A DNA stretch of 64,000 nucleotides from the IMG/VR virus record IMGVR_UViG_3300042922_000542, positions 1 through 64,000 of that record; one strand, written 5' to 3'. Both the position numbers and the translations under genes were made by a program. Below are positions 14,916 to 64,000 of the stretch, in pieces; position 1 is the stretch's first letter; the number at the start of each line of letters is the position of its first letter. Origin of the DNA: a virus. Below the pieces are notes generated by a model. That model was given only the letters and a program-made list of their open reading frames with translations, did not search any database and was not told the origin of the DNA.

Positions 14916-16727
14916 TTATTGGTTTTCCAATACGGTAATTGTAGAACGAGCCACTATCATTTTTAATAATTTTAACTCTTCCTCATTAATAACCATCAAT
15001 GCCCATTCGTCGGGTAATTGTAATTTTCTTACTCCCAAATTATAATGTGGTTTCTTTATAGCTAACAGGTTCCAGTAATATACATTGGCTAAGTGTTCGG
15101 CAAACATTTGTAAACATATGAATTGAGTTCTCTTATTTGCAGTCCCATATGTTTGATGGCATAACCCACTACACCAAGAGCAAGAAGATCCAATTGGACA
15201 ATCATAACAAATATCATTTGATTGTGAACGCCTTGTTACACTATCCATCATCGACAATATTTCGGATCCTTCTTCTCTACCAACCATACCAGTATCAATA
15301 TGACCTATACATTGCTCTTTGCATTTCGTTCCAAGTGATGATGGCATATATCTAATACATGGATAAAATTTACCCTTGTAGTCTAGTGCCAACATTGATC
15401 CTAATCCTCCACACCAATTTTGATCCGAAGTGTGTTTAAGCCTAGTCTCAGGTTTATCATCGAATATAGCAATATATAGATGCTCTAAATTATTTTCCAG
15501 CAAGTAGTTCGCTAGTTTCTTTAATTGTTCATATTCTAGTGTAGCAGTTTCTTGTGTCCAAACATCTTCAAACACGCAGTTTAAATTGATAGATTCCATA
15601 TCCTCATTGATGAAATTAATAACTGAATCATATAAATATTTCATATTTTCTGGAGCCAATGTCATCTTTGAATTTCTTTCGGTAGTATGATATTTATTAA
15701 AATGATTTAATGCAAGAATATCGATATCATACGAGCCTTCACCATTAGGCTGGATTCTACATGAGTCTTGTAATTCTTTATTACCATCTATTGATATATT
15801 AAATGAAACATGTTTAGCATATTTTTTAAAGAAATCTTGCACGTCTCTATCAAAATATAACATCCCATTGGTACATATAGAAATTCTATGCATTGCAAAC
15901 CATGGATGGTTTAATTCATAGCATCTTTCTAAAAAATATTCATAAATCTTTTTGGTAAGATTAATTTCTAACAATGGGTCCCCACCAATAAACTCAATGA
16001 TTATTGCAGGTGAATTGTGTTTATTAATATAACTATATTCATCATTTAAAAGTTTATCGATAAATGCTTTAGCTGTTGGAAATTTCATTCTTCCACATGT
16101 TTTATTTATCTGATAACAATATGTGCAGGATAAATTACAATCCTCAGTTGTTTGGAATGTAAAGTTGTGTACATATATTGATGTATCCTTATTAGTAGGA
16201 TCTACTGTATCTTGAGTAAACAATTCAGGGTAAACTTTTTGAATGGCATCACTATAACTTTCAACATTAAATCTAAAAAATTGATTTGGCATTATATTAA
16301 ATACTTCATCATCCTTTATTTTATCATCAATATAATTTAAACAATTTTCATCATCAGATAATATTATTACATCAAATCCAATCTCTTGATTTTTGAAATC
16401 AATATGTTTAACAATTACCTCAGATATATTATCAATATTATATGAGGAAACTCCAGATGATTCGATTATATCATTTAAGAATACTGCAACTATTTCACAG
16501 AATCCATAACGTACCTCGTCCAAGATACTAGTAAGTTTTTCATGTAATTCCGGGATTTTATCTAGATCCTTATTATGGTCATACATATAATTTATTCTAA
16601 ATGATATCGCATCAGCTTCATATCGTAACCTGGTTGTTTTATGATACCCGAATGTCTGCATTTCAAATATATCGAATTGCTGATTGTATAATTTAATTTT
16701 TTTATATAATGCATTTGTCTCTTTCAT
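14916..16727 (-). CDS. radical SAM / SPASM-domain enzyme with about 190-aa N-terminal extension (603 aa)
   Basis: RBS AGGAGG. CNLSCTYC (CxxxCxxC) at nt 16116-16139. C-terminal GKFYPC ... CYDCPIGSSCSWCSGLC auxiliary-cluster pattern typical of SPASM proteins. Confidence 0.85.
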   Translation of the reverse strand: MKETNALYKKIKLYNQQFDIFEMQTFGYHKTTRLRYEADAISFRINYMYDHNKDLDKIPELHEKLTSILDEVRYGFCEIVAVFLNDIIESSGVSSYNIDNISEVIVKHIDFKNQEIGFDVIILSDDENCLNYIDDKIKDDEVFNIMPNQFFRFNVESYSDAIQKVYPELFTQDTVDPTNKDTSIYVHNFTFQTTEDCNLSCTYCYQINKTCGRMKFPTAKAFIDKLLNDEYSYINKHNSPAIIIEFIGGDPLLEINLTKKIYEYFLERCYELNHPWFAMHRISICTNGMLYFDRDVQDFFKKYAKHVSFNISIDGNKELQDSCRIQPNGEGSYDIDILALNHFNKYHTTERNSKMTLAPENMKYLYDSVINFINEDMESINLNCVFEDVWTQETATLEYEQLKKLANYLLENNLEHLYIAIFDDKPETRLKHTSDQNWCGGLGSMLALDYKGKFYPCIRYMPSSLGTKCKEQCIGHIDTGMVGREEGSEILSMMDSVTRRSQSNDICYDCPIGSSCSWCSGLCHQTYGTANKRTQFICLQMFAEHLANVYYWNLLAIKKPHYNLGVRKLQLPDEWALMVINEEELKLLKMIVARSTITVLENQ

Positions 16728-40495: not shown

Positions 40496-41587
40496 TTAAT
40501 TTATTATCTCTACTTCGTATATGGAATCAAAAGAGTCTCTCGCAACTTTATTCTTTTGATCTATATTCTTTATCTGAAATGTTGGATTTGGATAATCCCT
40601 TATTTCTTCACCAGTGCTAGTATTTATAGTTTTATAACGATGCTTATTGTCAGCCGCATTATATTCAACAACTGTCTTTTTTGGAATATTTTCATATTTA
40701 ATATGGTTGCTAGCTTCGATTCCTTCAAAAGCAAATTTATCTGGATCGAAATCCTCAAATACCATATTACCTGATGATATCGATGAATTGACTGGAGCGG
40801 CTGCTGCTTGTGCAGTATTATTTGACTGTGGAGTCGGTGCACTAGGATAGGCGGCGCCACTACCCATGTTTGATATTATTGATGAACCCAATAATGTTAA
40901 GTCGGTTTGATCAAATCCTCCACTACCGTTACCAAGTTCTTGTTGTAGTTTTTTATCCTTCATATAAAGATCTGCAACAGTTTTCTTGATGTTAGTGATC
41001 TCTTTAATTACTGATAATGCATTAGCTCTTGAACTAATTACAGTTGCTGCTAATTCAACCGCAGTTTTATTTAATGGCATAGCATCCTTAGTATTTGGAC
41101 CTACCATTGTTTTGTATCGTCTTTGTAGATCATCAGTAAATTTGTTCTGCTCCGATACTATAGATTTTAACATATTTAATTCATTCTCAAATTCTTTAGT
41201 AAAATTTGCTTTTTTCTTCTTTTTTGATTTCTCTACCAATATCATATTTCCGGTAGAATCTTCATCGATCCACTGTTTATATTTCTTCTTATTTTTCTTA
41301 GGTTTAACATAATCTAGATCGTCCCCAGTTAGATTAACTATAACGTCTTTCCAACTATCTAATGCTCTTTCCTGTTTTTCTTTTTTAGTTAATGGACGGT
41401 CTTCATTTTCTCCATTCTCAGATGTCTTAGATTCTTGATCTCGTTCGGCTTGTTTGGCTTCTTTTAATGCACGTTTCTCTTCAGCCAACTTATTGTGTTC
41501 ATCCGCTCTATTTTTTAATATCCCTGAATAAATTTGTAATACTGATTGTTGTACATCATCAGGTGATGTTGATGTTTGTTTTTTCAT
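40496..41587 (-). CDS. Lys/Glu-rich protein with low-complexity Ala/Pro/Ser segment (363 aa)
   Basis: RBS AAAGGAA. The N-terminal half is charged and coiled-coil-like. Confidence 0.75.
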   Translation of the reverse strand: MKKQTSTSPDDVQQSVLQIYSGILKNRADEHNKLAEEKRALKEAKQAERDQESKTSENGENEDRPLTKKEKQERALDSWKDVIVNLTGDDLDYVKPKKNKKKYKQWIDEDSTGNMILVEKSKKKKKANFTKEFENELNMLKSIVSEQNKFTDDLQRRYKTMVGPNTKDAMPLNKTAVELAATVISSRANALSVIKEITNIKKTVADLYMKDKKLQQELGNGSGGFDQTDLTLLGSSIISNMGSGAAYPSAPTPQSNNTAQAAAAPVNSSISSGNMVFEDFDPDKFAFEGIEASNHIKYENIPKKTVVEYNAADNKHRYKTINTSTGEEIRDYPNPTFQIKNIDQKNKVARDSFDSIYEVEIIN

Positions 41588-41754
41588 ATTAAAACATTCC
41601 TTTCTAGGTATTTTATCATAATCTATAAAGATTTATAGTCTTAATGACATTGTTTCATAAGGTGAAATTATAATAATATTTAAATATATGAATTCAAAAC
41701 GACATTTATATATTATATAAATAAGAATAATAAATAAAGGGGACTTAAAAGATT

Positions 41755-44079
41755 ATGGCAAAGAAAAATCTCGAACAAAATATTGAACTCGAATTAAGTA
41801 ATTCGACGACATTCAATCCATTAATAAATGCATTAAGGGAGAATGATAAGAAAAATTTATTTAAATCAAATGTCGTTACTTACTTTCACAAGACGGGATT
41901 TCCACTATTTGATTATTATTTTGGATCGGTCATAAATATTCATGATGAATTGGGTGCAGTTATACGACAAGAGCCTATGATTGGTCAAGCTGCTGGAACA
42001 TTTAATTTAGTTTTAGCAAACTCTGGTGCGGGAAAGGCCCAACCATTAAGTACTCTTATACCAACACCATATGGCGTCAAACCAATGGGTAGTATAAATA
42101 AGGGGGACCGTGTATTTGGACGCAATGGTAAACCAACCAAAGTAGTTGGTGTATTTGATCAAGGTGAAAAAGATATTTATAAGATCACATTCCAAGATAA
42201 TAGAACTGCATATTGTTGTAAGGATCATCTATGGAATGTTAAAATAGGAAAGTCTGCTTATAAAACATTATCACTAGAAGAAATAATAGATATTAGAAAT
42301 GATAATCCTAATGAATATTATGGCATTCCGATGTTGAGTAAACCGGTATCATACTCAAGTAAAAAAGTCCCGGTACACCCATACGTATTAGGTACAATGA
42401 TTGCAAATAACTGTTTAGATTCAGCAACTTTAACTCTTATGAAAGATGATAGTTTTATTCCTAATAAAATAGCCGAGTTGGGTAATTTCCATGTTATACA
42501 AGCTGGATTTGATCCTACATTATTTACATTCCATGAGAAAGATAATAAAATATTCCGTATTATGACTGTTGATATATTAAAGGAACTGCCTGAGTTAATA
42601 GGTATTGATGAGGCATCAGTATATATACCTGATATTTATATGTATAATGATATTAATACTAGAATGGAATTATTAAAAGGATTGATGGATTCACTTGGAT
42701 ACATACTATACTCGAATGGCAGATACTGTGTTAGATTTGGAGCGAAATCAGAAAAATTAATGAAGCAAGTTAGAGAATTGATATGGGGATTAGGATATAG
42801 TACATCTAAGATATCTAAAGCTTTCGGAAACAATAAAGCATTTATGATGTCGATTAATATACCTCACATATTCAAAAAACAATTATTTTCTCTTCCATTA
42901 AAATTAGATTTTGCAGAGAAAGCTGCTCAGTCTCCTAGCACTAAACGTTATAATCAATTATCAATTACTAATATTGAATATAGCCATAAAGAACAGGCAA
43001 GATGTATTAAAGTTGAAAATAGTGATGGGTTATATATAACTGAAGATTACATAGTTACACATAATACAACATTAGTTGTACAAATGGCAGCAAATATCAT
43101 ACGTCAATATAGAAATAGCATTATTATTCATTATGATTGTGAAAGCAGGTTTGATATATCAAGAGGTGAAAATATATCTCAACTTCCAATTAGTGATTTT
43201 AATAATGGCACATATACATTAAAATCCGGACTTGTAACGTTAGATATTATGCAAGAATCGATAGTCGATTTATATGCCAATAAAATGAAAATGAAAGATG
43301 AATTAATGATAAAGACTGGGAGAATGAACGAATTTGGTGAGGAAATAGAGATTCTTGAGCCAACTGTTATAATAATAGATTCAATAACATCTGTTATCAA
43401 CGAATCATTCTCAGTTAATGACTCTAAAGATATGAATAAATTAGGTGGATTACGAAGCAATACAGCTGGAGCTAGAGATGCTAAAACACTTAAAGGATTC
43501 TTAAAAGATATAATTCCGTTATGTAAAGAGGCTAATATAATAATATACGCAATCAATCATATCAATGGAAATATGAGTATGAATGCATTTAGTGGACCGA
43601 CAAAACAACAGAATTTTATGAAACAGGATGAAGCAATTCCAGGCGGAAAAGTTTTAATATTTTATCCATATAATATAATTAAGATGATTGCTAAGACATC
43701 TGATGACTTTACAGAGGACAGTGATGGATTTAATGGTCATATGGTTGCATTCGAACCGGTAAAGAGTTCATCAAATCAATCAGGAAATACATCAAAAGGT
43801 GTTTCATTTGAGATGGTGTTCTCATATAAGGATGGATTCGATTCATTAAGGAGTTTAATTTTATATGGGAAGGAAAAAGGAATAATAGAAGGTAATAAGC
43901 CAAGAATGAAATTTAAGGATGATCCCTCATTCACATTTTCATTTAAAAATATACACGCCGAGAAAAATGAAAAACCAATATGGGATAATATTAAAAAATA
44001 CATAATGCCCGAATTAGAAACACATTTAAGTTTTGTTGAACCTAATGTAAAATTTGATAATAGACAATTAGATTATTAA
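41755..44079 (+). CDS. uvsX: UvsX/RecA-family recombinase interrupted by an in-frame intein
   Basis: The spliced extein restores Walker A (GAGK|TT). It also has Walker B VIIIDSITSV, then RDAKTLKGFLKDIIPLCKEANIIIYAINH and IPGGK, matching the T4 UvsX layout as I remember it. Confidence 0.8.
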   Translation: MAKKNLEQNIELELSNSTTFNPLINALRENDKKNLFKSNVVTYFHKTGFPLFDYYFGSVINIHDELGAVIRQEPMIGQAAGTFNLVLANSGAGKAQPLSTLIPTPYGVKPMGSINKGDRVFGRNGKPTKVVGVFDQGEKDIYKITFQDNRTAYCCKDHLWNVKIGKSAYKTLSLEEIIDIRNDNPNEYYGIPMLSKPVSYSSKKVPVHPYVLGTMIANNCLDSATLTLMKDDSFIPNKIAELGNFHVIQAGFDPTLFTFHEKDNKIFRIMTVDILKELPELIGIDEASVYIPDIYMYNDINTRMELLKGLMDSLGYILYSNGRYCVRFGAKSEKLMKQVRELIWGLGYSTSKISKAFGNNKAFMMSINIPHIFKKQLFSLPLKLDFAEKAAQSPSTKRYNQLSITNIEYSHKEQARCIKVENSDGLYITEDYIVTHNTTLVVQMAANIIRQYRNSIIIHYDCESRFDISRGENISQLPISDFNNGTYTLKSGLVTLDIMQESIVDLYANKMKMKDELMIKTGRMNEFGEEIEILEPTVIIIDSITSVINESFSVNDSKDMNKLGGLRSNTAGARDAKTLKGFLKDIIPLCKEANIIIYAINHINGNMSMNAFSGPTKQQNFMKQDEAIPGGKVLIFYPYNIIKMIAKTSDDFTEDSDGFNGHMVAFEPVKSSSNQSGNTSKGVSFEMVFSYKDGFDSLRSLILYGKEKGIIEGNKPRMKFKDDPSFTFSFKNIHAEKNEKPIWDNIKKYIMPELETHLSFVEPNVKFDNRQLDY
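42037..43065 (+). mobile_element. intein (343 aa) with LAGLIDADG-type homing-endonuclease domain; class-3-like (Ala1, W-C-T signature)
   Basis: It starts at Ala95 immediately after GAGK and ends ...YIVTHN, with Thr as the +1 residue. Block B is CKDHLW (Trp at 42232-42234). Block F has Cys in ARCIKVE (43003-43005). Block G is VTHN. The LAGLIDADG-like motifs are YVLGTMIANNC and LLKGLMDSLGY. Confidence 0.8.
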
Positions 44080-44098
44080 AAATATTAAGGTGGTAAAT

Positions 44099-44332
44099 AT
44101 GGAAATAACATTAGCTATTAAATTTGAAGAACCTCCCGAAGACTTTCTATTCTTTAATAATATATTAAAAATACCAGAGTGCTCGAAACACCATATCCAT
44201 TATGATAGAGATAGTGTTTATAGGCATCAAGGTAATATTACATATCTATCCGGTGAGTTTTTAACAAACATAGTTAAGGTTTTTAGCGATGCCAATATGA
44301 GTATCGTCGAATTAGAATTTAAAATAAAATAA
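44099..44332 (+). CDS. hypothetical small protein (77 aa)
   Basis: AAGGTGG lies 5 nt upstream of ATG 44099 (the track starts at an upstream GTG). Confidence 0.65.
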   Translation: MEITLAIKFEEPPEDFLFFNNILKIPECSKHHIHYDRDSVYRHQGNITYLSGEFLTNIVKVFSDANMSIVELEFKIK

Positions 44333-44334
44333 AA

Positions 44335-44365
44335 AAAATAGACGGGTGATATTCCCGTCTATTTT
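44335..44365 (+). terminator. terminator hairpin
   Basis: aaaatagacggg-tgatatt-cccgtctatttt. Confidence 0.7.
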
Positions 44366-44388
44366 AATTTAATATGAGGTGATTGAGT

Positions 44389-44733
44389 ATGGCAATTATG
44401 CATAAGGAAGAATCCGATACATTAATTAATACGGTAACATCATTAGTATCAAGTAATAATGCATGGGAAAGTGTATTAAAATTTTTCAATAATGATAAAA
44501 TAGGAAAAGGATATCTTGAAAAAGCCCGACGGGAAGTTTTTGATAATAATCAAGAATATTCTATAATGATTATAACTGCCTTGGAAGACATGAGTGAGCG
44601 TATACAGGATGCAATTGATGATGAAGATAATATGGATAACAATAAATTACGTAATGAAATATATAAACTAGAATCAGAAAATACAAAATTAAAGAAAAAA
44701 CTTTATAATATTAAAAATGCCATGTATGAATAA
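44389..44733 (+). CDS. hypothetical protein (114 aa), C-terminal coiled coil
   Basis: GAGGTG lies 7 nt upstream of ATG 44389 (the track uses an upstream TTG). Confidence 0.65.
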   Translation: MAIMHKEESDTLINTVTSLVSSNNAWESVLKFFNNDKIGKGYLEKARREVFDNNQEYSIMIITALEDMSERIQDAIDDEDNMDNNKLRNEIYKLESENTKLKKKLYNIKNAMYE

Positions 44734-44735
44734 AA

Positions 44736-44762
44736 AATAAAGGAGGCAACACCTCCTTTATT
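44736..44762. terminator. bidirectional terminator hairpin
   Basis: aataaaggagg-caaca-cctcctttatt followed by T8. Confidence 0.75.
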
Positions 44763-44766
44763 TTTT

Positions 44767-45351
44767 TTAATCGGAATTTGGATATGTTAATATGGCTTGA
44801 AATTCTGTGATTTTCAAATCTTCAAAAACTGCTATTCTAGGCTTGGTATAATTATACGGATCTACCTCTTTACGTTTAAATATCAAACTGACCCAAGCCT
44901 CTTCCTGAGGATCGTCTCTATTTATTATTACTTCATATCCAGTATTAGCTACTGTAAATATTTCTCTAATTCGCGATTCAATTATATCATAGTGTTTATT
45001 AATTTTTATTTTTCTTTCATTTTCAGGTTCCCCATACCACCATGCATTAGACCAATCATCAGGAAAATCTGAAAGTATAGCATCAAATTCAATGTCTGAT
45101 GGTAATGGAATAAGCACACCTTCAATTTCAGGATGATGACAACAAATTCCTCCCGTTTGATTAGAATAATAAATTCCGCTTGGGATTTTAATAATAATGT
45201 GTGAATTGTGACTACTCCATAATTGAATAATACGTTTAATATCATAAATTGGTTGCATTTCACAACCACATTTAGCACACATATGAGTGAGTAATCCTTT
45301 ATCATCTGAACTAATAAATACAGAATTACATTTGGGACATTGATATTTCAT
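44767..45351 (-). CDS. protein with N-terminal zinc-ribbon (194 aa)
   Basis: RBS GGAGGTGA. Zinc-ribbon motif CPKC-x19-CAKC. Confidence 0.7.
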   Translation of the reverse strand: MKYQCPKCNSVFISSDDKGLLTHMCAKCGCEMQPIYDIKRIIQLWSSHNSHIIIKIPSGIYYSNQTGGICCHHPEIEGVLIPLPSDIEFDAILSDFPDDWSNAWWYGEPENERKIKINKHYDIIESRIREIFTVANTGYEVIINRDDPQEEAWVSLIFKRKEVDPYNYTKPRIAVFEDLKITEFQAILTYPNSD

Positions 45352-45718
45352 TTAAATCACCTCCATTGATAGACTCTAATATCAATTCAATGACATCGTC
45401 TTTTTCGTTAATTGAATATTTATAATGATTATTAAATGCAGTAGATGTAAGTGTATAAATACCATCACTATATAATAGTTGATACACATATCTTGTTATA
45501 TTTTCAGATATTTGCAATCCGTCTCGAATGCCTCTAATTACGATATGTACTGGTTTTTTCTGCATGATTAATAGATATCTATGATTCTCATACCATAATG
45601 ATTCATTTATTTCATTATTCTCAGGTGGAGAACCGCATAATAAAAATTTAGATGCTTCATAAATATATTTTTTATCACTGTCTGTTAATGGTTTAAAATT
45701 ACCCATAATAAAAGTCAT
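45326..45718 (-). CDS. hypothetical protein (about 126-130 aa)
   Basis: AGGAG abuts the first ATG, so Met5 (45706) may be the real start. The 3' end overlaps the next gene by 26 nt. Confidence 0.6.
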   Translation of the reverse strand: MTFIMGNFKPLTDSDKKYIYEASKFLLCGSPPENNEINESLWYENHRYLLIMQKKPVHIVIRGIRDGLQISENITRYVYQLLYSDGIYTLTSTAFNNHYKYSINEKDDVIELILESINGGDLNEISMSQM

Positions 45719-45741
45719 CTCCTAATACATTAATAAAAAAT

Positions 45742-46670: not shown

Positions 46671-49472
46671 CTATATATCTTCTATAATAGTATCTAGATT
46701 TAAATTTCCAACATTTACTGTTTGTACGTGCTTTGCTTTTAGATTTAGATTTAAGTCTGAATATGCCAGTTGTGAAACCAATAAACCTAAATATCTAGTA
46801 TCTAATTTATAGAATAGCGTTCCCGCACATTTACTACAGATCTTTTTATTGGTGCATACCATCGGTGATCTAAAATTTAACACCTTGCCAACATACCCAT
46901 TGACATTTTCGGATGTTAACATCTTTAATTGATCACCCTCAATGAAATATGAATCAACTAATTCTTTTTTGTTTCTACTACTTACAGTAATAGGTATACT
47001 TCTCTTTGTGCCGCAATCAGTACCAGGATCATCAACTTCAATCATTTGTAATAACGCAAGGAGCTGTTTACCCATATAGCCGGCACTAGCAGTTGCAATT
47101 GCACTTGGGTACGCACCAGATACTATCGAGTTTGCATGTGCTGGTATATCTTTAACATTTATACCATTCATAAAACTTGTTTCGATAAAGTCAAATTCAT
47201 TGGTAATCTTATTTAATACTGGACCTTTTAGTATAGAATTGTTTTTATAGTTATTAGCAAAATCAAGATCACCAGATAGGTATAAATCCATTCCTGGATC
47301 ATCCTTCAATATTTCCCTAGCATATGCAACTAACTCTTTCTCAATCCTATTCATTATCACAATATTTTTATCAGCGATTTCTTTTTCATATTGTTTATAT
47401 AATTCAGCTTTTCGTTTTTCAATCTCTGGTAATGGTTTAGCCATACGAATAGAAATAGTATGTGCTAACATTCCGTTTAACCAGTAACCTAAATTATCTC
47501 TTCGATTTGTATAATCATCAAACTGGGCTCTATTTATTTTATCATTCATATATAGTTGACCTATTAGTTGATCAGTAAATGATAAACCCGATTTACCCAT
47601 CTCTATATCAATAAATTTAGTTTCTGATATAACCCCAGATCCATGTAATATATACCTATTGAATATGAATCTACCCAATGTTGTAGTAAATTCACCATGA
47701 CCATCATAAAAATAATTTGCTGGCACGATCATAGTATCCCAAGTGTTATATCTAGATTGTCTTTTTACTGTATTTTTAGTATGAGATATATCTGCCGTAT
47801 CAGAAACAATATCAGCAATAAATGTACGTGTATAATCACCAACTGGTGTTTTCAGATATACATCGGTATCATATGCATTTACTTTCTTAGAATTAATTCT
47901 AATTTTAGTAAGTTCATAATATGAATTGTAAACCTCTTTAGAAACTACACGTATATTAGAACCCGTAACAGTTAATGCCGATAATTTTCTATTCATTATA
48001 ACTTCGGCTTCTCTATTAGCTTCATCTGTCCATAAACCTCTAACAGAACATTGGTCACCATCGTAGTCAGCACCTTGTCCTTCGAGATTGGAGTTTGAGT
48101 ATACCAATGTATCTATAAATTGTACACCGACCTTATCAGGATCAGTATTCATATCAATATGTGGATAGAATCGATACTCAACTCCATTGAAAATAACGTG
48201 ATCGTGTGTCTTGGTAGATTGCACTCGAACCTTATTAAAAAATAAACCTTTGTCCGTTCCAACCGGATAACGACTAATCATTATATGTCGCTTTTCACAT
48301 ACATCAACACATGCTAAATATAAAATGTCTGTAATTGTTAAAGGTCTTTTCAAATCACTATGATTATTACCAATGATTTGTTTTCCCTTTAATACCATCA
48401 TAACTTTAATCGCATCTTTTTTAGCATTTGGAGATATAGCTTCTACTATAATTGGTTTAAATCTATTATCTGGATTACGTACATAATCCAAAATCATTTT
48501 CTTAACAACCTTTTCTGAAAATTGCAATTCTGGATTTTTTAATGAAATTGAAACTTCCTTTTGCTTTTCAGGATCATAATACCTTACTAAATTTGCATCA
48601 TTAATAATTTCTCTAGTAAAAAAATTCTTGACCCATGATTCTACAAATGGATAGAACGCAGCGCAGCATTGGGCGATTGGTAATGCAGCATGATTAATGT
48701 CGACCATATTATCTTCTAATCGTTCATTATTGTAAGTAGGTGCAGATATAACTGAACGGGTTCCATATGTAATATTTTTACCCATAAGATACCGTTTTAT
48801 CATTCCATACTTACCCCTTATACGATCTTTGAAATAATTATAAACTTCACCTAATGTCTCTTGTATTCTTGCCTGGGTTGTATACTGCCTTCTTGCAAAA
48901 ATACCTCCCTCTGACAATAGACCAACCATTCTAATGATTGCGGTATAATGTTTATTTAATTGATTAATACGGTCAGAATTATCATCATCGGTTGATACAA
49001 ATACGTCCCTATAGAATGGAGGACATATAACGAGTCTTGTTATAAATATATCATCTTTATTAGTATTCTTTAAAAATGTTAATGATCTTTCATTTGATGA
49101 TGCTGATTTACTCCAATCTATTTCATCCCAATGGTCATATAATTGATGTAGTCCAGTCCATCCATTTTCATTATCTTCAACCAACATGCTATCCTTGATA
49201 CTATAACGTCTGGTTCCAGAGACAATATATATTACACCTTTAAACAATCTTTTTAAGAATGCTTCATACACATGTGGGTGGATAAATGGATTTTTTAAAT
49301 CAATATAAGCATATGTTCCCAATCTGTCACTTTTGCTTATACCAAATATTTCATTTGATAATACGCCCCCTGGATCAAATAATCCTTTATTCGAAAATAA
49401 TCTTGGAGATGTACATTCCTGAATTGCATTTACTTGAATAAATCTATTTACATCTAACAATTCCAGTTTCAT
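46671..49472 (-). CDS. multisubunit-type RNA polymerase beta-prime-like catalytic protein (YonO-like or jumbo-phage-like)
   Basis: GADYDGDQ (Asp triad at nt 48054-48068) matches NADFDGD. KRYLMGKNITYGTRSVISAP (48738-48794) matches the beta-prime LLGKRVDYSGRSVI motif. N-terminal IFG...GYIDLKNPFIHPH matches IFGP...GHIELAAPVAHIW. Start taken at Met44 (AAAGGAG upstream, ATG 49472). Confidence 0.8.
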   Translation of the reverse strand: MKLELLDVNRFIQVNAIQECTSPRLFSNKGLFDPGGVLSNEIFGISKSDRLGTYAYIDLKNPFIHPHVYEAFLKRLFKGVIYIVSGTRRYSIKDSMLVEDNENGWTGLHQLYDHWDEIDWSKSASSNERSLTFLKNTNKDDIFITRLVICPPFYRDVFVSTDDDNSDRINQLNKHYTAIIRMVGLLSEGGIFARRQYTTQARIQETLGEVYNYFKDRIRGKYGMIKRYLMGKNITYGTRSVISAPTYNNERLEDNMVDINHAALPIAQCCAAFYPFVESWVKNFFTREIINDANLVRYYDPEKQKEVSISLKNPELQFSEKVVKKMILDYVRNPDNRFKPIIVEAISPNAKKDAIKVMMVLKGKQIIGNNHSDLKRPLTITDILYLACVDVCEKRHIMISRYPVGTDKGLFFNKVRVQSTKTHDHVIFNGVEYRFYPHIDMNTDPDKVGVQFIDTLVYSNSNLEGQGADYDGDQCSVRGLWTDEANREAEVIMNRKLSALTVTGSNIRVVSKEVYNSYYELTKIRINSKKVNAYDTDVYLKTPVGDYTRTFIADIVSDTADISHTKNTVKRQSRYNTWDTMIVPANYFYDGHGEFTTTLGRFIFNRYILHGSGVISETKFIDIEMGKSGLSFTDQLIGQLYMNDKINRAQFDDYTNRRDNLGYWLNGMLAHTISIRMAKPLPEIEKRKAELYKQYEKEIADKNIVIMNRIEKELVAYAREILKDDPGMDLYLSGDLDFANNYKNNSILKGPVLNKITNEFDFIETSFMNGINVKDIPAHANSIVSGAYPSAIATASAGYMGKQLLALLQMIEVDDPGTDCGTKRSIPITVSSRNKKELVDSYFIEGDQLKMLTSENVNGYVGKVLNFRSPMVCTNKKICSKCAGTLFYKLDTRYLGLLVSQLAYSDLNLNLKAKHVQTVNVGNLNLDTIIEDI

Positions 49473-49545
49473 AAAGTAATTAACTCCTTTCTGTATTATA
49501 TAATACGGTTTTATAATTGCGTTACTGCTATAAATGAAGTTATAT

Positions 49546-49571
49546 GTGATAGAGGGAATTCCCTCTATCAC
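49546..49571 (-). terminator. terminator hairpin upstream of the RNAP gene
   Basis: gtgatagaggg-aatt-ccctctatcac. It lies inside the track's N-terminal extension of the RNAP ORF, which supports the later start. Confidence 0.6.
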
Positions 49572-49615
49572 ATACACCTTATTTTGTTCTAGGAGGAACA
49601 TTTATGTCAGCAAAT

Positions 49616-57781: not shown

Positions 57782-60700
57782 TTAATCTAAATTTATATTT
57801 ATTTCATTTTTTATAATGTTGATAGTATTTTTTGTACTATTGATACTTATAATGTTTGGATCGTATACTTTATATAGAGCTTCATTTAGATTGTGTGTTA
57901 GTATACCATATTCATCATACAATCTAACTGACATTCCATACCATTCATTCTTATCAATTATTACATGTGATTGTAGGTATGGATCGTTATTAATTTCTTC
58001 TTTCCATTCATCATTTAATAGATTAACTATAGTTATATAATCGATTGGCTTCCATTTAAATTGGCTCCATACCATTGATCGACCTGTTAAAGGAATTCCC
58101 TCTAACGTTGGAGCATTTAATACCATATACTGGAATGGTGTATTTACTATATCCGGTAACGGTAAATCTTCTGATGTATATAATCTTAATAGTATATCTC
58201 TATCGGTATCAACATTCTCAGGATAATCTTTATAATCAGGATGATCTCTACCAACTTGTCGCCAAACAGGTGTTAATAATTTTTCTTGTTCATCAATTGC
58301 ATAGTTATCATCAGGCAATGTACCTTTTAACGCATCATCCAAATATGTTGAATAATTCCATACCGGATATGGTCTTAAACTATCTTCAGAATCTATTACT
58401 TCTAGAAACTCGTCACTGAAATACTCATCTTGTGATCTATTAATTTCAAGAATTTCTAAATTTTTTAATGAAGTTAATCCATGCAAAAATATTTTTGTTG
58501 GTGAAATAATCGTAACTTCATCATCTAATAATTTACCGTTTACCCAGAATTCAAAATATGTTTTGTTTAAAGGTTTATTTATTTTACCTTCAAGATTGAT
58601 ATAACCATGTTTGGGAATGTTTCTCTGTACATAAACTGATCTAACTGGGTAAGGTAGGGTTCTAATCTCAACTTGTTCATTGCGTCTATATAGATTTAAG
58701 AATGTAACATCAGTTCCAGTTTCAGTTAAATTGGTATCTAATGTAGGTTTCTCTGTTGAGCAATTAACTATTGGCATTCTAATATTATTTAGTAACATAT
58801 AAAATCTATCTTGCGGTGCTTGATAGTTTGGTATTTTATATGTTGGGGTCATTTCCCAGTCATTACCCATAAATCTCCATCTATGAGGAGTCTTATCTAT
58901 TGTAATAGTATAATTTGTCGGTTCTGGAATATTATATTTCGGAATTATCTTGAATTCACCTTTAGGTGGAACTGCCATTGCATCCGTTATATTTTTTATC
59001 CAACCATCATCGATTGATTCAATTTCAAATGTTCTAAACTCAACATACATTTTTGCAGCAGTATGGGTTCCTATATATTCACTCTGGTATATTATAAATT
59101 CATAATTTCCAGCATCAGGAATTTCAGGAATATGTCTAGGTGTAAATGATAGCACATGGCTTGACATATCGGATTTGATATCGCCAAATATCTGGATATT
59201 ATGATCCTTATTGTATGCCCATGCTGAACCGGTTGTATATCCATCCCCAGGATATGTTACAATATGTGATGTAATTTTGGTATAGGTTTCGGTTCCTTCA
59301 TATATAACATCAATTGGATCTGCAACTATTCTTATTTCATCTGATCCAACAATAGGAATTGCAGTACTGTCCTGATTTATTACTTGGACATCATCTATAT
59401 TGATTGTATTACCTACATCATCAATGACTGCTGTATTTTCATCTAGTATTACCTCAGTATTTTTTTCTTTGTATGATATATTTCTAAACCATACATCGAA
59501 TCTGCTGCTATCCATTACATTTTCGAAGCTATTTGTATTATTATTAAATAATATTATATCTTCTAAATGTATCTCATTACGATAATGCATATAATCAGCT
59601 AATTTGAATAGCATTCCATCTTCTTTAGTGTGTTCAGATATTGTATAGTTTTTAGTCTGTGTATATGGAAATAGTTTTCTAATACGAATTGATCTTCCGG
59701 TATTAATATTCACTCTAGCAGGTAATATGTTTATTTCATCAATGATAGATGTAAATATATCCAATTTTGCGTTACGTAATAATGAATTATTACGCTTTTG
59801 AGTATCAGCTGTTTTGTTTAGATATAATTTCATGTCATATTTGAAATATTCATCATCTTTTAGAAATGTTAATGTAAAACCTAAATCATTATCGTCATCA
59901 TCGAATATTGATTCCAATTCCCATCTACTTTGATCATTTAAATCCTCCCATTCTTTAGTAGTCCAGTTAAATACAGAGATATCATTAGGACCTATATTGT
60001 GAATGTAGGTAGAATTATTTTCATAATGTGGAACATATGTCGGTTTCCATTTTCTAGTATTTATGTTTCTTTTAATCATATCATATGATCTGACTGTCAT
60101 CCACGGTGCATCTGGATACTGTTGGCGGATGTTTGGATATCCGGGTTTATAATCAGAATCCATCCAAAATACATCAAACCATCTCCATGTCTCATCTGAG
60201 ATTATACCATCATCATATATTAATTCACCTAATCCATTTATACCTGTTATTTTATATATGCAACGATGTAAATCCCTAGTTTCGTCCACATTAATCCCGA
60301 CAGTTTTACCTATAATAACATTAGGTAGTTGTGATTTATTAACAGGCCTTTCTGCAAATGTTTCGAAATTATAATCGGTGACTACTGAATTTTCAGAGTT
60401 ACACATTAACACTTGGCTTATAAATTGATATTCCCCTTTAACTGGTTGATTTGGTGGAATTCTTTTAGTATCATCTATAAATGGGTGCGTAACTTCTTCA
60501 ACGTTTTGAATGCCATTCCACTTATCATTGATATCGCCTGTTATTGAATTATCAATACGATTTCCTTGGTAAAAGTGATGTTCTGGATCCCCATCGTCAC
60601 ATGCAGGGTCAGGTAATGGATCAAGCATTGGAATTGAAGGGTACATAAATGTATCATTACGATCATCCATTGGAAGATTATCATGACGATGTTCAATAAA

Positions 60701-63700
60701 TGTTATATCAGGCCACTTAGGTGATATTGGCTTTGATACACCGTCTGCCGTTAGTTTATCATAATTTGATACATGAAATTCATCATCAATGTTATTTTGC
60801 TGATCATCCACAGCATTTAAATTTTCCCCAGCTATATCATAGCGTTCATATATTAATTTACCATCAGTCAAACTTATTTCTGCGATACCTTTATATGGAT
60901 CCATTATAAGTTTAGATACTAATAATTTTAAACAATATTCATCAGCATCCACATATATTTCTTGACCATTATGGTATCCGGCTCCAGGGTCTTGAATTGT
61001 GATAGAATTGATTTTGTATATGAAATGTTGATCTCCGGAAATATACAATGAAGAATTCTTCAGATTGTTAATTTTATTTGCGTTGATGTATAAAACATCA
61101 AGTTTTCTAGAATTTAAATGTGAATTATCTTCATGACGTTGGTAGAAGTCTGTAACCTGTTTACCACCAATAAAGACTTCATAGTTTAATTCTAGATCAT
61201 GAATGTTATCGAATTTGAATGTCATTAATTCACTATCATCGAATTTATTTGGTGCATCTACGAAATAATTATCAGGATCTATTAACAGTTCTGGAGTAAT
61301 TGATTCAGTTTTTATATCGATCTTTAATCCATCTCCAGATATTTCATTTGTAAATGTTTCGAATACGCCCCATATCTTTTCACTCAATGCATATTCTATC
61401 ATTGGCTTAACTGATGCCACGCCTTCAGCATCAATCGATATAATTTCGAAGCATAATGAATATCCTTTCATCAATACATATTTATCTGGTATGGCTATAG
61501 ATACGATTTGTCCTACTGAATAATTGTTGCCAGGGGATGCTATAGAAGCTTCATATATTCGATAATACAGATTATCATTTATATTTGTATGATCCAATGG
61601 GTCCAAAATTGATTTCAATTCAACATCTAATGTATTTATTGTTACATTTGAAATATTAATTTCATCAATGCCGGTATTAATTTCAATGATTATATTCTTT
61701 AATTCATTTATCAAATTTACACAAATTATTTTTGCTTCTGAATTACTATACGCACTTAACATCAATGAATATTTATTAAGTACAGATGATACGTATTGTG
61801 TTATAAGCCTTAATGTGCTTTCGCTGTCCCATGCTTCACCACTGTTACATGCTATTTGTATATTATCACGTACTTCCTCAGCCATTTTATCTATAAACTG
61901 AGGATCACTCCACCCTAATAAATGCCTATAGTGTTTTATTGTTTCAATTAGATGATTATATTTTTTCAATAGTAATCTAATATCAAGTTTCGAACGTGAT
62001 TCAATTAGTTGATCTCCGGCCGTTTGAACATCTGGCAATTTATCGATTGCTAAATTAATAGATTCAATAAGATTTGAAGTGATATTACTACTATATTTAG
62101 CCAATATATAATTCCATCGTTCTTGGATATCATTAATCTTTGATATTACTTTAGATAATGCGAAGTTCTCAATTGGATTTGGGTTATTGGCTGATATTAC
62201 TAAAGCATTTAATATTTCATATATAAATGAAACAGTTGGTATTATTATTCTATTTGCAACTATTGGTATATCAGTTACTGAATTTACGTTAACCGTTAAC
62301 CCCATGCCAACATCCCCATTATCACGACTCATGTATGATTCTAATCTCGATGGATCATTAAATGATAATTGATAATAATTTATATGAGGTATAAGGCTTG
62401 TAACAGTTCCGTTAGGTAGCGTTTCATTAACTTCAAATGTTCCTACATCTGGAATATTGATAATATCATTATTGTTATATGAAACTCCGCTCGACTGGAT
62501 CGACAGATCATTTATACTATACATATTCATGTATGTCGGCCATTCGTTACAAGGTATATACGCTGTGTTTGCTAAATCGATATATGATATGCATGCATTT
62601 ATTTTATCCTGTAATATTGTATCGGATGTTTCATAATTCTGAAGTATTATTTTTATTTTATTTAATAATACAACGGAATATATTTCTTGATCGTATTTAC
62701 ATTGATCTAGTATATTAACGATATCGGTCGGTAAATTATTATCAAATGTATTTTTTAATGAATTTTCTAGTGTGAGAATATTAAATGTCAATGGAGGTCT
62801 CTTAACAATTCGATTTGTCATGTCCGAATCATCCAATATTTTTGTCATATAGTCAAAATATGATGGTATCCATTGATTATATAGGTATATTTCGAAATTT
62901 GATATTTTATCGTAACCATTCCATTTTAGTTTAATAATCTCTTTCATTTTATTCACTACATCATCAAATGGAAATCCAAAATCGTCACTTTTTAAATATG
63001 TCTCAAGACCCAATTTATAATATGGCTCCATTGTGTTAGTAAACAATTCATTGAATCTAACATATGATGGATTATCTGCAACGTATTCCATCATCTCCCA
63101 TTTACTACCAGTCAATAGCAATCCTTTATATATGGAATTCAATGCCATCCAATAGAAGCGTTCCATAAACACATTGTGATAAGCCCCTCTCATTTCTTCA
63201 TATCTATATAATACATCATCATATGAAGGGGTTAAGGGCATAATATCATTCGAGAGTTCTCTTGGATTAATCGTATCACTATAAAAAAAGAATGCCTTGT
63301 ATACACCATTTGGATTTATAGTTTCATTACTTAAGGGCTTGACAAAGTATACATCTGGAAAATGTTGGATAATTTCTCTTGCTTTTGGCCTCCATACCTG
63401 ATCTACGGTATCGTATTCGAAACACCAAAAGTTATTTACATCAACTGGGCGTTGAAAACGTACCTTTCCTTTATATTCATCAGGGTCACACCATAGGTAT
63501 TTCCTAGTAATAGATCTTATTATGTTGGCTATATAGAATTTTTCAGTTAAGCTAACACATTTTTGAATTATCGTATTGCATGTTGGATAAAAATCATATG
63601 GTATATATATTTCATTCCACCCAGCAGCTCGTATCATTTCTATTTCTTTAATAAATACATCCCATGCATCTTCCGTAACTTTATCACGTGGAGATAGACG

Positions 63701-64000
63701 TTTATCCAAAAATATACCTTGAGTATTATATAAATTTTCTCCATGATTTTTTAATAACTCAATCCATTGATTCCAATTTTCAGCATTCTTTAAATTGTCA
63801 TTTTTTATATAATGTTTGAAATTGCTTACTGTATTTGAAAATATCCCTATCGTAGATTTAAATGTATCTATTTCATCTCGAATAACATCATAGGGTTCAA
63901 TATGATTGGTATATGCATCAGATAATACTATAGGTCTTATTATATTCATCCATCCATCATAATTTTTTTGAGTACTAGGATTTTCATCGATGTATATCTG
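57782..64000 (-). CDS. giant protein (at least 2055 aa, possibly longer; frame stays open to the window edge)
   Basis: Uninterrupted 6.2-kb ORF. The 51 nt upstream of the first Met (63950-64000) are in frame with no stop and no obvious RBS, so the true start may lie outside the window. No catalytic motif recognised. Confidence 0.8.
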   Translation of the reverse strand, partial: QIYIDENPSTQKNYDGWMNIIRPIVLSDAYTNHIEPYDVIRDEIDTFKSTIGIFSNTVSNFKHYIKNDNLKNAENWNQWIELLKNHGENLYNTQGIFLDKRLSPRDKVTEDAWDVFIKEIEMIRAAGWNEIYIPYDFYPTCNTIIQKCVSLTEKFYIANIIRSITRKYLWCDPDEYKGKVRFQRPVDVNNFWCFEYDTVDQVWRPKAREIIQHFPDVYFVKPLSNETINPNGVYKAFFFYSDTINPRELSNDIMPLTPSYDDVLYRYEEMRGAYHNVFMERFYWMALNSIYKGLLLTGSKWEMMEYVADNPSYVRFNELFTNTMEPYYKLGLETYLKSDDFGFPFDDVVNKMKEIIKLKWNGYDKISNFEIYLYNQWIPSYFDYMTKILDDSDMTNRIVKRPPLTFNILTLENSLKNTFDNNLPTDIVNILDQCKYDQEIYSVVLLNKIKIILQNYETSDTILQDKINACISYIDLANTAYIPCNEWPTYMNMYSINDLSIQSSGVSYNNNDIINIPDVGTFEVNETLPNGTVTSLIPHINYYQLSFNDPSRLESYMSRDNGDVGMGLTVNVNSVTDIPIVANRIIIPTVSFIYEILNALVISANNPNPIENFALSKVISKINDIQERWNYILAKYSSNITSNLIESINLAIDKLPDVQTAGDQLIESRSKLDIRLLLKKYNHLIETIKHYRHLLGWSDPQFIDKMAEEVRDNIQIACNSGEAWDSESTLRLITQYVSSVLNKYSLMLSAYSNSEAKIICVNLINELKNIIIEINTGIDEINISNVTINTLDVELKSILDPLDHTNINDNLYYRIYEASIASPGNNYSVGQIVSIAIPDKYVLMKGYSLCFEIISIDAEGVASVKPMIEYALSEKIWGVFETFTNEISGDGLKIDIKTESITPELLIDPDNYFVDAPNKFDDSELMTFKFDNIHDLELNYEVFIGGKQVTDFYQRHEDNSHLNSRKLDVLYINANKINNLKNSSLYISGDQHFIYKINSITIQDPGAGYHNGQEIYVDADEYCLKLLVSKLIMDPYKGIAEISLTDGKLIYERYDIAGENLNAVDDQQNNIDDEFHVSNYDKLTADGVSKPISPKWPDITFIEHRHDNLPMDDRNDTFMYPSIPMLDPLPDPACDDGDPEHHFYQGNRIDNSITGDINDKWNGIQNVEEVTHPFIDDTKRIPPNQPVKGEYQFISQVLMCNSENSVVTDYNFETFAERPVNKSQLPNVIIGKTVGINVDETRDLHRCIYKITGINGLGELIYDDGIISDETWRWFDVFWMDSDYKPGYPNIRQQYPDAPWMTVRSYDMIKRNINTRKWKPTYVPHYENNSTYIHNIGPNDISVFNWTTKEWEDLNDQSRWELESIFDDDDNDLGFTLTFLKDDEYFKYDMKLYLNKTADTQKRNNSLLRNAKLDIFTSIIDEINILPARVNINTGRSIRIRKLFPYTQTKNYTISEHTKEDGMLFKLADYMHYRNEIHLEDIILFNNNTNSFENVMDSSRFDVWFRNISYKEKNTEVILDENTAVIDDVGNTINIDDVQVINQDSTAIPIVGSDEIRIVADPIDVIYEGTETYTKITSHIVTYPGDGYTTGSAWAYNKDHNIQIFGDIKSDMSSHVLSFTPRHIPEIPDAGNYEFIIYQSEYIGTHTAAKMYVEFRTFEIESIDDGWIKNITDAMAVPPKGEFKIIPKYNIPEPTNYTITIDKTPHRWRFMGNDWEMTPTYKIPNYQAPQDRFYMLLNNIRMPIVNCSTEKPTLDTNLTETGTDVTFLNLYRRNEQVEIRTLPYPVRSVYVQRNIPKHGYINLEGKINKPLNKTYFEFWVNGKLLDDEVTIISPTKIFLHGLTSLKNLEILEINRSQDEYFSDEFLEVIDSEDSLRPYPVWNYSTYLDDALKGTLPDDNYAIDEQEKLLTPVWRQVGRDHPDYKDYPENVDTDRDILLRLYTSEDLPLPDIVNTPFQYMVLNAPTLEGIPLTGRSMVWSQFKWKPIDYITIVNLLNDEWKEEINNDPYLQSHVIIDKNEWYGMSVRLYDEYGILTHNLNEALYKVYDPNIISINSTKNTINIIKNEININLD

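Follow-up and report, generated by a model that had tools for sequence, protein, structure and literature searches.

Class 3 inteins lack a nucleophile at position 1 and combine Trp at block position B12, Cys at F4 and Thr at G5 followed by His-Asn with Ser or Thr at the +1 position (Tori et al. 2010). Most of them were reported from the outset in ATPase P-loops (PMC2807308), and insertion between the Lys and the Thr of this loop (GK/T; slashes mark insertion points throughout) is the 'classic' P-loop site of inteins (PMC5050341). In RadA and E. coli RecA, the P-loop is catalogued as intein site 'c' (PMC4513877). A survey of actinophages found class 3 inteins in four extein types only (10.1101/2025.01.02.630785). 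Class 2 (KlbA-type) inteins, for their part, are defined by Ala1, attack by Cys+1 and the absence of the Trp-Cys-Thr triplet (W-C-T; PMC2807308).

The window analyzed here, 64,000 nt of the virus record IMGVR_UViG_3300042922_000542, encodes a jumbo-phage RecA/UvsX-like recombinase interrupted at GAGK/TT by what is very probably an intein of class 3 with a LAGLIDADG domain nested in it; splicing would leave a 431-aa enzyme. The interrupted gene is organized as follows:

41755..44079, + strand: precursor gene of the 774-aa UvsX/RecA-like recombinase with intein; single uninterrupted ORF, stop codon included
41755..42036, + strand: N-extein of 94 aa, with the Walker A residues G-A-G-K at its C-terminal end (from translation and empty alleles)
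42037..43065, + strand: intein, 343 aa, 39.0 kDa, Ala1 to Asn343 (from translation, empty alleles, homology and fold)
43066..44079, + strand: C-extein, 337 aa plus stop, starting with Thr+1 (from RecA/UvsX fold and phrog_97)
43066-43068, + strand: Thr+1, i.e. Thr438, the Walker A Thr (from translation)

Translation of 42037-43065 (1029 bp, in frame) gives 343 aa that begin with AQPLSTLIPTPYG and end in EDYIVTHN, flanked by LANSGAGK on the N-terminal and TTLVVQMAANI on the C-terminal side, and excision yields GAGKTT. The boundaries are certain, because intein-free alleles read straight across GAGK/TT: three such proteins (P0024, P0035 and P0041) are exactly 431 aa long, 81-84% identical and pass through the site without a gap. 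At the DNA level, the syntenic contig L003 is ~79% identical to positions 41701-42035 and 43062-44079 of the window and lacks precisely the 1029 bp; its empty site (60 bp around position 4282) reads TTAATATTAGCAAATTCCGGTGCAGGTAAA joined directly to ACTACATTGGTTGTACAAATTGCAGCAAAT. Together, translation and the 431-aa alleles uphold the 343-aa in-frame insert and the restored GAGKTT of a preliminary description of this DNA. Other members of the family carry mini-inteins of 140-176 aa without the endonuclease stretch, and the wider family thus displays a full homing cycle, the site being occupied by a full-size intein or a mini-intein in some alleles and empty in others. Given the full-length homology to known inteins and the exact absence from 81-84% identical alleles, the insert pattern is not due to chance. 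An intron in place of an intein was rejected, as positions 41000-45000 held no Rfam match and the insert, which carries intein blocks, keeps the reading frame.

The intein does not stand out in composition (~30% G+C, same as its flanks), and HMMs of the N- and C-terminal splicing regions revealed no second such intein in any of the six frames of the window. A purine-rich, Shine-Dalgarno-like element (aaagggga) lies ~12 nt 5′ of the precursor ATG. PHROG scans of the neighboring indel genes and of a 2055-aa ORF gave no result.

Four elements of the insert carry its assignment to class 3:

42037..42039, + strand: Ala1 (GCC), first residue of block A, non-nucleophilic (from translation and empty alleles)
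42226..42234, + strand: block B His64-Leu65-Trp66 (B10-B12), Trp66 being the W of W-C-T (from Bethlehem alignment and conservation)
43003..43005, + strand: Cys323 (precursor Cys417), block F4, predicted initiating nucleophile (from Bethlehem and 6rix alignment and conservation)
43057..43065, + strand: block G Thr341-His342-Asn343 (G5-G7) (from Bethlehem alignment and conservation)

In BLASTP, the insert matched the class 3 intein of mycobacteriophage Bethlehem over its full length (E 2e-18), with His64/Trp66, Cys323, Thr341-His342-Asn343 and Thr+1 aligned to Bethlehem His65/Trp67, Cys320, Thr339-His340-Asn341 and Thr+1, respectively (Bethlehem residue numbers from PMC2807308). This alignment offset the N-terminus by two residues, placing 'AQ' in the extein, and was rejected at that point since the empty alleles read GAGK/TT; in an ungapped reading, a PTP motif aligns at residues 9-11 of both inteins. 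The MchDnaB1 class 3 structure 6rix aligned consistently over blocks A-B and F-G: His64-Leu65-Trp66, which corresponds to His65-Gly-Trp67 in Bethlehem, falls on HQW, and Cys323, located within ARCIKVE, on the Cys in vRCvEV of block F. The motif CKDHLW occupies intein residues 61-66, and His64 and Trp66 are His158 and Trp160 of the precursor. Across 59 intein-bearing homologues, H-L-W, Cys F4 and T-H-N are the sole invariant intein columns; the F15 aromatic residue is retained (Tyr333 here; Tyr in 36 and Phe in 23 homologues), Gly93 and Lys94 of the N-extein are likewise invariant, and Thr-Thr directly follows the intein in all 59.

More distant matches point in the same direction. Among PHROGs, the intein matched terminase and helicase-loader families whose members bear inteins (2e-27 to 1e-19), the PDB sequence matches comprised gp41-1 and the class 3 DnaB inteins 6rix, 6bs8 and 6riy, and tblastn found relatives in 471 phage records. 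The Pfam Hint model scored below its cut-off on the intein, and curated Pfam and NCBIfam models placed neither the intein nor the RecA core above threshold; identification of intein and host rests on PHROGs, PDB sequence matches, pairwise alignment and the predicted fold. Fold matches, PDB intein matches and empty alleles at both the protein and the DNA level identify the insert as a HINT-type intein, and the non-nucleophilic first residue, Trp B12, Cys F4, Thr G5 with His-Asn and Thr at +1 place it in class 3. Class 1 does not fit with Ala, rather than Cys, Ser or Thr, at position 1, nor does class 2 with Thr at +1 and W-C-T present.

All residues singled out in the preliminary description (Ala1, CKDHLW, the Cys in ARCIKVE, the VTHN end and Thr+1) are present in the translation, its positions for Cys417 (nt 43003-43005) and Trp160 are correct, and the Trp, Cys and Thr on whose block positions it had let its case stand or fall are assigned by alignment to B12, F4 and G5. 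Its class 3-type reading is thus supported by sequence and predicted fold, with the Bethlehem alignment, conservation and blocks A-B/F-G of 6rix all consistent with it.

On the model of the Bethlehem and mycobacterial DnaBi1 inteins, the gene would give rise to an 87.7-kDa precursor with a split ATP-binding loop, in which His64 and Trp66 of block B would activate Cys323 (F4) for attack on the Lys94-Ala1 bond, resulting in a thioester-linked branched intermediate. The N-extein would be transferred to the Thr+1 side chain, cyclization of Asn343 would release the 39-kDa intein, and an O-to-N shift would produce a normal peptide bond, with a 431-aa, 48.7-kDa recombinase bearing an intact GAGKTT P-loop as the end product. 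The computed masses (precursor 87.7 kDa, 431-aa product 48.7 kDa, intein 39.0 kDa) agree with the ~49- and ~39-kDa products anticipated earlier. We infer splicing and use of the class 3 route from homology, residue positions, conservation and the predicted fold; as the intein splits Walker A between Lys94 and Thr, recombinase activity would require splicing.

One variant of this scheme, which we consider unlikely, makes splicing conditional, with Cys323 reversibly trapped in a disulfide with block B Cys60 or by zinc; the recombinase would then be switched on according to redox or metal conditions in the infected cell, in the manner of Mycobacterium smegmatis DnaBi1. That intein, the closest mechanistic model, likewise interrupts a P-loop, and a disulfide at its F4 Cys is inhibitory (PMC6195587); among the 59 homologues 52 have Cys at block B6 and 32 a second Cys at F2. 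However, the B6 Cys is perhaps merely part of the core, the present copy has Ala321 in place of the F2 Cys, and Cys48, the disulfide partner in DnaBi1, does not occupy an equivalent position.

As to the host protein of the class 3 intein, the preliminary description had named a UvsX/RecA-family recombinase with an insertion in its P-loop, and indeed the exteins have a predicted fold like RecA/UvsX and the insert separates the Lys of Walker A from its Thr. Besides GAGKTT after excision, the host carries the RecA-core motifs HYDCE and IIIDS, the C-extein contributing RecA-type YDcE and the Walker B IIIDS. It is matched by phrog_97, the UvsX-like recombinase family (4.8e-28), and is ~30% identical to annotated UvsX-like proteins of phages AR9 and PBS1 and of Staphylococcus jumbo phages. 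A model of an intein-free allele, of moderate confidence (mean pLDDT 62.9), had exclusively RecA or UvsX among its top 50 Foldseek matches (best E 2e-12, TM 0.41-0.63). The host phage is an AT-rich, AR9/PBS1-related jumbo phage; megablast of the precursor gene against 50,697 phage records gave no match, indicating that there is no close cultured relative among them.

That the host is another RecA-fold ATPase (for instance Sak4, RadA/Sms, a helicase or a KaiC-like protein) and no strand-exchange recombinase appears quite improbable. It could be argued from the lack of any curated RecA/Rad51/UvsX model above threshold in Pfam or NCBIfam (Pfam returned AAA_25 only, just under its cut-off with 25.3 vs. 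27 bits, and NCBIfam nothing significant), from the weakness of the PDB recombinase profile matches (E ~0.1) and from N- and C-terminal regions that are extra with respect to RecA. Yet those weak matches were all to recombinases (RAD51D, T4 UvsX and RadA), and the phrog_97 match, all 50 best structural matches and the RecA-type YD(c)E and hhhDS motifs argue for a recombinase.

In the AlphaFold model of the precursor, the intein part has a pLDDT mostly above 90, and Foldseek matched the model to PI-SceI (E 5.6e-16) and the TliVMA intein, the intein matches ranging from E 5.6e-16 to 6e-11, as well as to RecA/UvsX. Nested within the intein is an endonuclease domain:

42331..42963, + strand: LAGLIDADG homing-endonuclease domain, ~intein residues 99-309 (missing from mini-inteins; fold match)
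42385..42411, + strand: LAGLIDADG motif 1, VLGTMIANN, with Asn124 at the catalytic Asp position (from alignment to ..LGDG.. of Bethlehem, CF8 and ph0011)
42670..42699, + strand: LAGLIDADG motif 2, LLKGLMDSLG, with Leu220 at the catalytic Asp position (from alignment to ..D(S/T)DG..)

Pfam LAGLIDADG_3 matched this domain weakly, and both LAGLIDADG helices are modeled (precursor residues 209-217 and 300-314, pLDDT >90). The ..D(S/T)DG.. form of motif 2 is found in the Bethlehem, CF8 and ph0011 inteins and in the closest homologues; the homologue P0002, for instance, has GNG and DTDG motifs. The domain has the family fold, but neither helix has its catalytic Asp/Glu; because both catalytic acids are replaced (Asn124, Leu220), the endonuclease is probably inactive. 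Judged from these two residues only, an active enzyme is unlikely and the present intein copy is probably no longer mobile. The preliminary description makes no mention of this loss.

Decay of the endonuclease active site could be taken to extend to the intein as a whole, leaving a splicing-dead relic or a retained domain within a non-functional or non-ATPase recombinase pseudogene, and an Arthrobacter WDT intein demonstrated to be a pseudogene gives a precedent (PMC3196547). We regard this as very improbable: the ORF is intact, the identical 774-aa protein occurs in two data sets (one JGI contig of 246 kb and one Logan contig), and all conserved RecA-core motifs are retained in the exteins. 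Moreover, every Bethlehem-critical residue is kept (His B10, Trp B12, Cys F4, Ile F5, the F15 aromatic, Thr G5, His and Asn), in addition to the invariance of H-L-W, Cys F4 and T-H-N in the 59 homologues.

Splicing by another route, be it direct attack by Thr+1 (class 2-like) or an unrecognized N-terminal nucleophile (class 1-like), would accommodate the Ala1 shared with class 2 KlbA inteins and the Ser1 or Cys1 of some homologues, but is hardly credible with Ala at position 1 of the present copy, Thr at +1 and an invariant W-C-T, when class 2 inteins attack via Cys+1 and the KlbA examples are devoid of W-C-T (PMC2807308).

Position 1 varies within this family. In the 59 aligned homologues it is Ala, Ser, Met, Gly or Glu, with Cys in P0057; over the ~97 alleles with invariant Trp-Cys-Thr it is mostly Ala, Gly, Met or Glu, and Ser in about a dozen, P0031 and P0088 among them. 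As a tentative, rather doubtful proposal, Ser1 and Cys1 members could use either nucleophile, and the B6 Cys together with the frequent CxC (F2/F4) could reveal a redox-gated phage recombinase. If Ser1/Cys1 members did use either nucleophile, the disputed origin of class 3, which has been argued not to be derivable from class 1 by simple mutation (PMC7664689), would become directly testable in this family. More generally, the family is suited to studying decay along the homing cycle and the role of position 1, and its mini-inteins of 140-176 aa, which have Thr+1, are candidates for use as class 3 tools.

The preliminary description had further claimed a new host protein and site, which is overstated: P-loop ATPases of phages are typical hosts of class 3 inteins, P-loop inteins are known from RadA and RecA, and GK/T is an established insertion point. 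The site is therefore not new, whereas the claim of a new host may hold in part, as the AR9-type UvsX-like recombinase may be unreported so far as a class 3 host. A literature search combining UvsX or phage recombinases with inteins found no description, which is weak evidence as subscription journals and InBase lay largely outside its scope. The phage UvsX-like recombinase joins a short list of class 3 host proteins and brings to light, among AR9-like jumbo phages of metagenomic origin, a large family that has gone unannotated and whose proteins the source databases label 'hypothetical'; annotation pipelines will mis-size or mis-call such a core recombinase. The general understanding of inteins is unchanged, since insertion into P-loops, the phage origin of class 3 and inteins in recombinase P-loops were established before.

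Among solved structures, the best sequence match (in blocks A-B) is the gp41-1 split intein (6qaz, 6riz) from a cyanophage-like metagenomic DnaB helicase, with E-values of 2.5e-9 for a W-C-T-grafted variant and 7.7e-8 for the other; unlike the present intein, it belongs to class 1 (Cys1), is split in nature and lacks an endonuclease domain. The Pyrococcus horikoshii RadA intein, in turn, we take to be canonical, with Cys1. Together with the E. coli RecA intein at point 'c' (PMC4513877), it shares with the present locus the RecA/RadA host superfamily, the P-loop and, as predicted here, an ATPase activity dependent on splicing. A search of 5,426 complete E. coli genomes found no interrupted recA P-loop, with 5,413 uninterrupted matches.

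The mycobacterial DnaBi1 and M. chimaera DnaB1 inteins (6bs8, 6rix; PMC6195587, PMC7664689) resemble the present intein in interrupting the P-loop of RecA-fold ATPases immediately before the Ser/Thr that is to coordinate Mg2+, in Ala1 and W-C-T, and in the sequence of blocks A-B and F-G. They differ in being cellular mini-inteins without an endonuclease and in residing in a replicative helicase; redox control, demonstrated for DnaBi1, is hypothetical in the present intein.

The Bethlehem 'DnaB' intein ('MP-Be DnaB'; gp11, terminase large subunit; PMC2807308), the class 3 prototype, matches in its phage origin, homology over the full length, non-nucleophilic first residue, aligned catalytic positions, nested LAGLIDADG domain and similar size (341 vs. 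343 aa). It is only 23% identical, has a terminase rather than a recombinase as host, starts with Pro1 instead of Ala1, and keeps both endonuclease Asp residues where Asn and Leu are found here. The closest cultured-phage relatives are class 3 inteins that interrupt the P-loops of SF2 helicases in the jumbo phages CF8 (Aeromonas) and ph0011 (Escherichia). While their hosts are helicases and their LAGLIDADG motifs intact, they are 31-37% identical to the present intein by tblastn (34-38% in alignment) over the full length, and share the AQPL start with Ala1, H(L/V)W, Cys F4, VTHN followed by Ser or Thr, and insertion after GK.

The recombinase gene is read as one uninterrupted ORF, within which the translation reveals a 343-aa insert.

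41755–44079, + strand: precursor ORF, uninterrupted, 774 aa (ORF reading)
42037–43065: 343-aa insert, AQPLSTLIPTPYG...ARCIKVENSDGLYITEDYIVTHN (translation)

Translation of this segment and its flanks (...LANSGAGK before, TTLVVQMAANI... after) bore out the proposal of the preliminary description that excision of 343 aa restores GAGKTT. The residue numbers given there are exact—Trp160, Cys417 (nt 43003–43005) and Asn437 of the precursor being intein Trp66, Cys323 and Asn343—and its product sizes agree with the computed masses of 48.7 kDa for the ligated exteins and 39.0 kDa for the intein (precursor, 87.7 kDa). A search of a large protein collection found 695 relatives of the full ORF; an identical protein (P0001) is encoded on a 246-kb contig, and an independent Logan contig also encodes the identical precursor. 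Three intein-free (empty) alleles of exactly 431 aa, P0024, P0035 and P0041, share 81–84% identity with the window exteins and read (N/Q)SGAGK/TT(L/A/V) at the junction, with no residues in between. The contig of P0024, L003, shows synteny with the window (74–79% DNA identity), with the following matches:

L003 3944–4281: window 41701–42035, N-extein side
L003 4279–5296: window 43062–44079, C-extein side

L003 lacks exactly the 1029 bp of the insert and agrees with the window at 50 of the 60 bases surrounding the site. In other relatives this site is occupied by full-size (~245–377 aa) or mini-inserts (140–176 aa). The window insert is a discrete element bounded exactly by positions 42037 and 43065; its G+C content (~30%) equals that of the flanks, and no intron-like RNA was detectable in the insert region.

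This element is an intein in which a LAGLIDADG domain is nested. Its matches include PHROG families of terminases and helicase loaders that bear inteins (2e-27 to 1e-19). Among solved inteins, it matches gp41-1 (E 2.5e-9), the class 3 inteins of DnaB 6rix, 6bs8 and 6riy (~1e-6) and, weakly and at the C-terminus, PRP8 inteins and PI-SceI. By tblastn, intein relatives were found in 471 phage records annotated under helicases, terminases, primases and PhoH, 428 of which cover at least 80% of the length. When the complete precursor was modelled with AlphaFold (59 homologues; mean pLDDT 79), the intein mostly exceeded 90 and both junctions were of low confidence; the model's first matches are PI-SceI (E 5.6e-16, TM 0.55 on target) and the TliVMA intein, with RecA and UvsX next. 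Pfam and NCBIfam returned only sub-threshold matches for window 41755–44079, with no model above cut-off for either intein or RecA core, which probably explains why the source database names the precursor ‘hypothetical protein’. One homologue cluster carries the JGI label ‘snf2/rad54 helicase (fragment)’, probably caused by intein similarity.

The model contains both LAGLIDADG helices with high confidence. In an alignment with the prototype class 3 intein of mycobacteriophage Bethlehem and the helicase inteins of Aeromonas phage CF8 and coliphage ph0011, however, the window reads VLGTMIANN against ..LGDG.. in motif 1 and LLKGLMDSLG against ..D(S/T)DG.. in motif 2, placing Asn124 and Leu220 of the intein at the positions of the two metal-binding Asp. 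LAGLIDADG catalysis needs acidic residues, e.g. Asp218 and Asp326 of PI-SceI. The nearest full-size homologues carry GNG and DTDG, and many others are without both acidic residues. The window exteins are closest to empty alleles (81–84%), followed by mini-intein alleles (70%); the intein shares at most ~48% identity with any other intein of the set. The motif loss, these identities and the occurrence of full, mini and empty alleles are what would be expected of a homing cycle with the window copy past its mobile phase.

Class 3 inteins are defined by a non-nucleophilic residue 1, co-varying Trp (B12), Cys (F4) and Thr (G5) (W-C-T), Ser or Thr at +1, and the obligate use of a block F Cys as nucleophile (Tori et al., PMC2807308). 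The Bethlehem prototype was located in gp11, the terminase gene (AY500153, 7260–9971), with junctions SQDQ/PLALNTEVPTP...ILTHN/TKN. BLASTP gave a full-length alignment of the window intein with it (E 2e-18, 23% identity), and a four-way MAFFT alignment including two further phage inteins gave the same register:

Window His64/Trp66: Bethlehem His65/Trp67
Window Cys323-Ile324: Bethlehem Cys320-Ile321
Window Tyr333: Bethlehem Phe330 (F15 aromatic)
Window Thr341-His342-Asn343: Bethlehem Thr339-His340-Asn341
Window Thr+1: Bethlehem Thr+1

Alignment to the class 3 structure 6rix (M. chimaera DnaB1 intein) agrees (..aaHqW.. and vRCvEVdnpahlYlaGrgmvpTHN). In all three comparisons W, C and T fall at B12, F4 and G5, the placement on which the preliminary description had staked its class 3 assignment. 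Among 59 intein-bearing homologues (45–66% identity to the window protein over full length), the sole invariant intein columns were His158-Leu159-Trp160, Cys417 and Thr435-His436-Asn437, followed by Thr438-Thr439 (precursor numbering); Ile F5, Val F7 and the F15 aromatic were almost invariant. W-C-T was kept in all ~97 intein-bearing proteins among the best 120 relatives. Block B position 7 varies (S/C/T/D/G), which fits the reported dispensability of B7 in the Bethlehem intein. The window intein displays every class 3 feature that can be read from sequence. When W-C-T was grafted onto gp41-1, a class 1 intein, splicing was not efficient (PMC7664689), which counsels caution in reading a class 3 mechanism from sequence.

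On this invariant W-C-T background, residue 1 of inteins at the same site is mostly Ala, with Ser (~12), Met, Gly, Glu and one Cys (P0057) also found (variable homologues include P0057, P0031, P0038, P0088 and P0092). Of the 59 intein-bearing homologues, 52 have a Cys at B6 (window 42214–42216) and 32 have a further Cys at F2, two positions ahead of the catalytic F4 Cys (CxC). Cys60-Cys61 are present in the window copy, where F2 is Ala. In the aligned stretches, the B6 Cys is absent from the Bethlehem and 6rix inteins but present in gp41-1. The variable position 1 and the B6/F2 Cys could bear on class 3 origin or on redox control.

By homology to the Bethlehem intein and DnaBi1, the M. smegmatis class 3 intein, splicing would start from a precursor whose P-loop is split and whose ATPase activity should be absent; a RadA P-loop intein precursor without ATPase activity is cited in PMC6195587. 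Cys323, helped by His64 and Trp66, would attack the Lys94-Ala1 bond, the N-extein would move to Thr+1, Asn343 cyclisation would free the intein, and the ester would become a peptide bond. Thr+1 would then serve as the Walker A Thr, a double role shared by the +1 Ser of DnaBi1 (PMC6195587).

With the insert removed, the host protein matches phrog_97 ‘UvsX-like recombinase’ (4.8e-28) and shows ~30% identity to annotated UvsX-like recombinases of Bacillus phages AR9, PBS1 and Internexus and Staphylococcus jumbo phages such as MarsHill and Madawaska; several further records, S6 and PALS_2 among them, list the matching gene only as ‘hypothetical’. None of these phage proteins contains an intein. 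A profile of 20 intein-free alleles matched only recombinases in the PDB, weakly (RAD51D, T4 UvsX 3io5, RadA; E ~0.1), with GSGKT, YDcE and INH aligned, and all 50 best Foldseek matches of a P0024 model (mean pLDDT 62.9) were RecA or UvsX (best E 2e-12, TM 0.41–0.63). At the level of fold, these results give good support for placing the host in the RecA/UvsX family. Genes for virion proteins, tail fibres, a helicase, a radical SAM enzyme and a multisubunit-type RNA polymerase beta subunit lie nearby, a set that fits an AR9-like jumbo phage.

46671–49601, − strand: RNA polymerase beta, 976-aa single ORF; phrog_2986 at residues 43–561 and phrog_2962 at 610–972, both ‘RNA polymerase beta subunit’
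14916–16727, − strand: 603-aa radical SAM protein among structural genes (phrog_1802, 7e-56)

With two PHROG families in tandem, the 976-aa ORF appears to encode a multisubunit-type beta subunit in one piece; in AR9/phiKZ-type phages this subunit is split. A 2055-aa ORF (57782–63949, − strand) had no PHROG match at E ≤ 0.001. Directly upstream of its recombinase, L003 has an additional 350-aa gene (L003 2796–3848) absent from the window; downstream, the window carries ~1.6 kb of small ORFs (44080–45735; 44090–44332, 44383–44733 and further sequence) absent from L003. Neither the L003 gene nor these two small ORFs matched a PHROG. Such differences on both sides indicate that indel hot spots flank the recombinase.

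The P-loop is insertion point ‘c’ in archaeal RadA and E. coli RecA, the RecA family being ‘a favorite niche’ (Topilina et al., PMC4513877). No interrupted P-loop was found among 5,413 recA regions from 5,426 complete E. coli genomes, so the E. coli RecA intein of that study is absent or very rare in complete RefSeq genomes. Our literature search found no description of a class 3 intein in a phage UvsX-like recombinase, and a 2025 actinophage survey (10.1101/2025.01.02.630785) lists 19 host proteins, none a recombinase, with class 3 in four extein types only. Of the ‘new host protein and site’ claimed initially, the host may stand in this sense only; the site does not, being point ‘c’ of RadA/RecA. 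The nearest cultured-phage relatives, in CF8 and ph0011, are likewise Ala1/W-C-T inteins following GK, but in helicases. Insertion site, intein class and link with phages are all already known.
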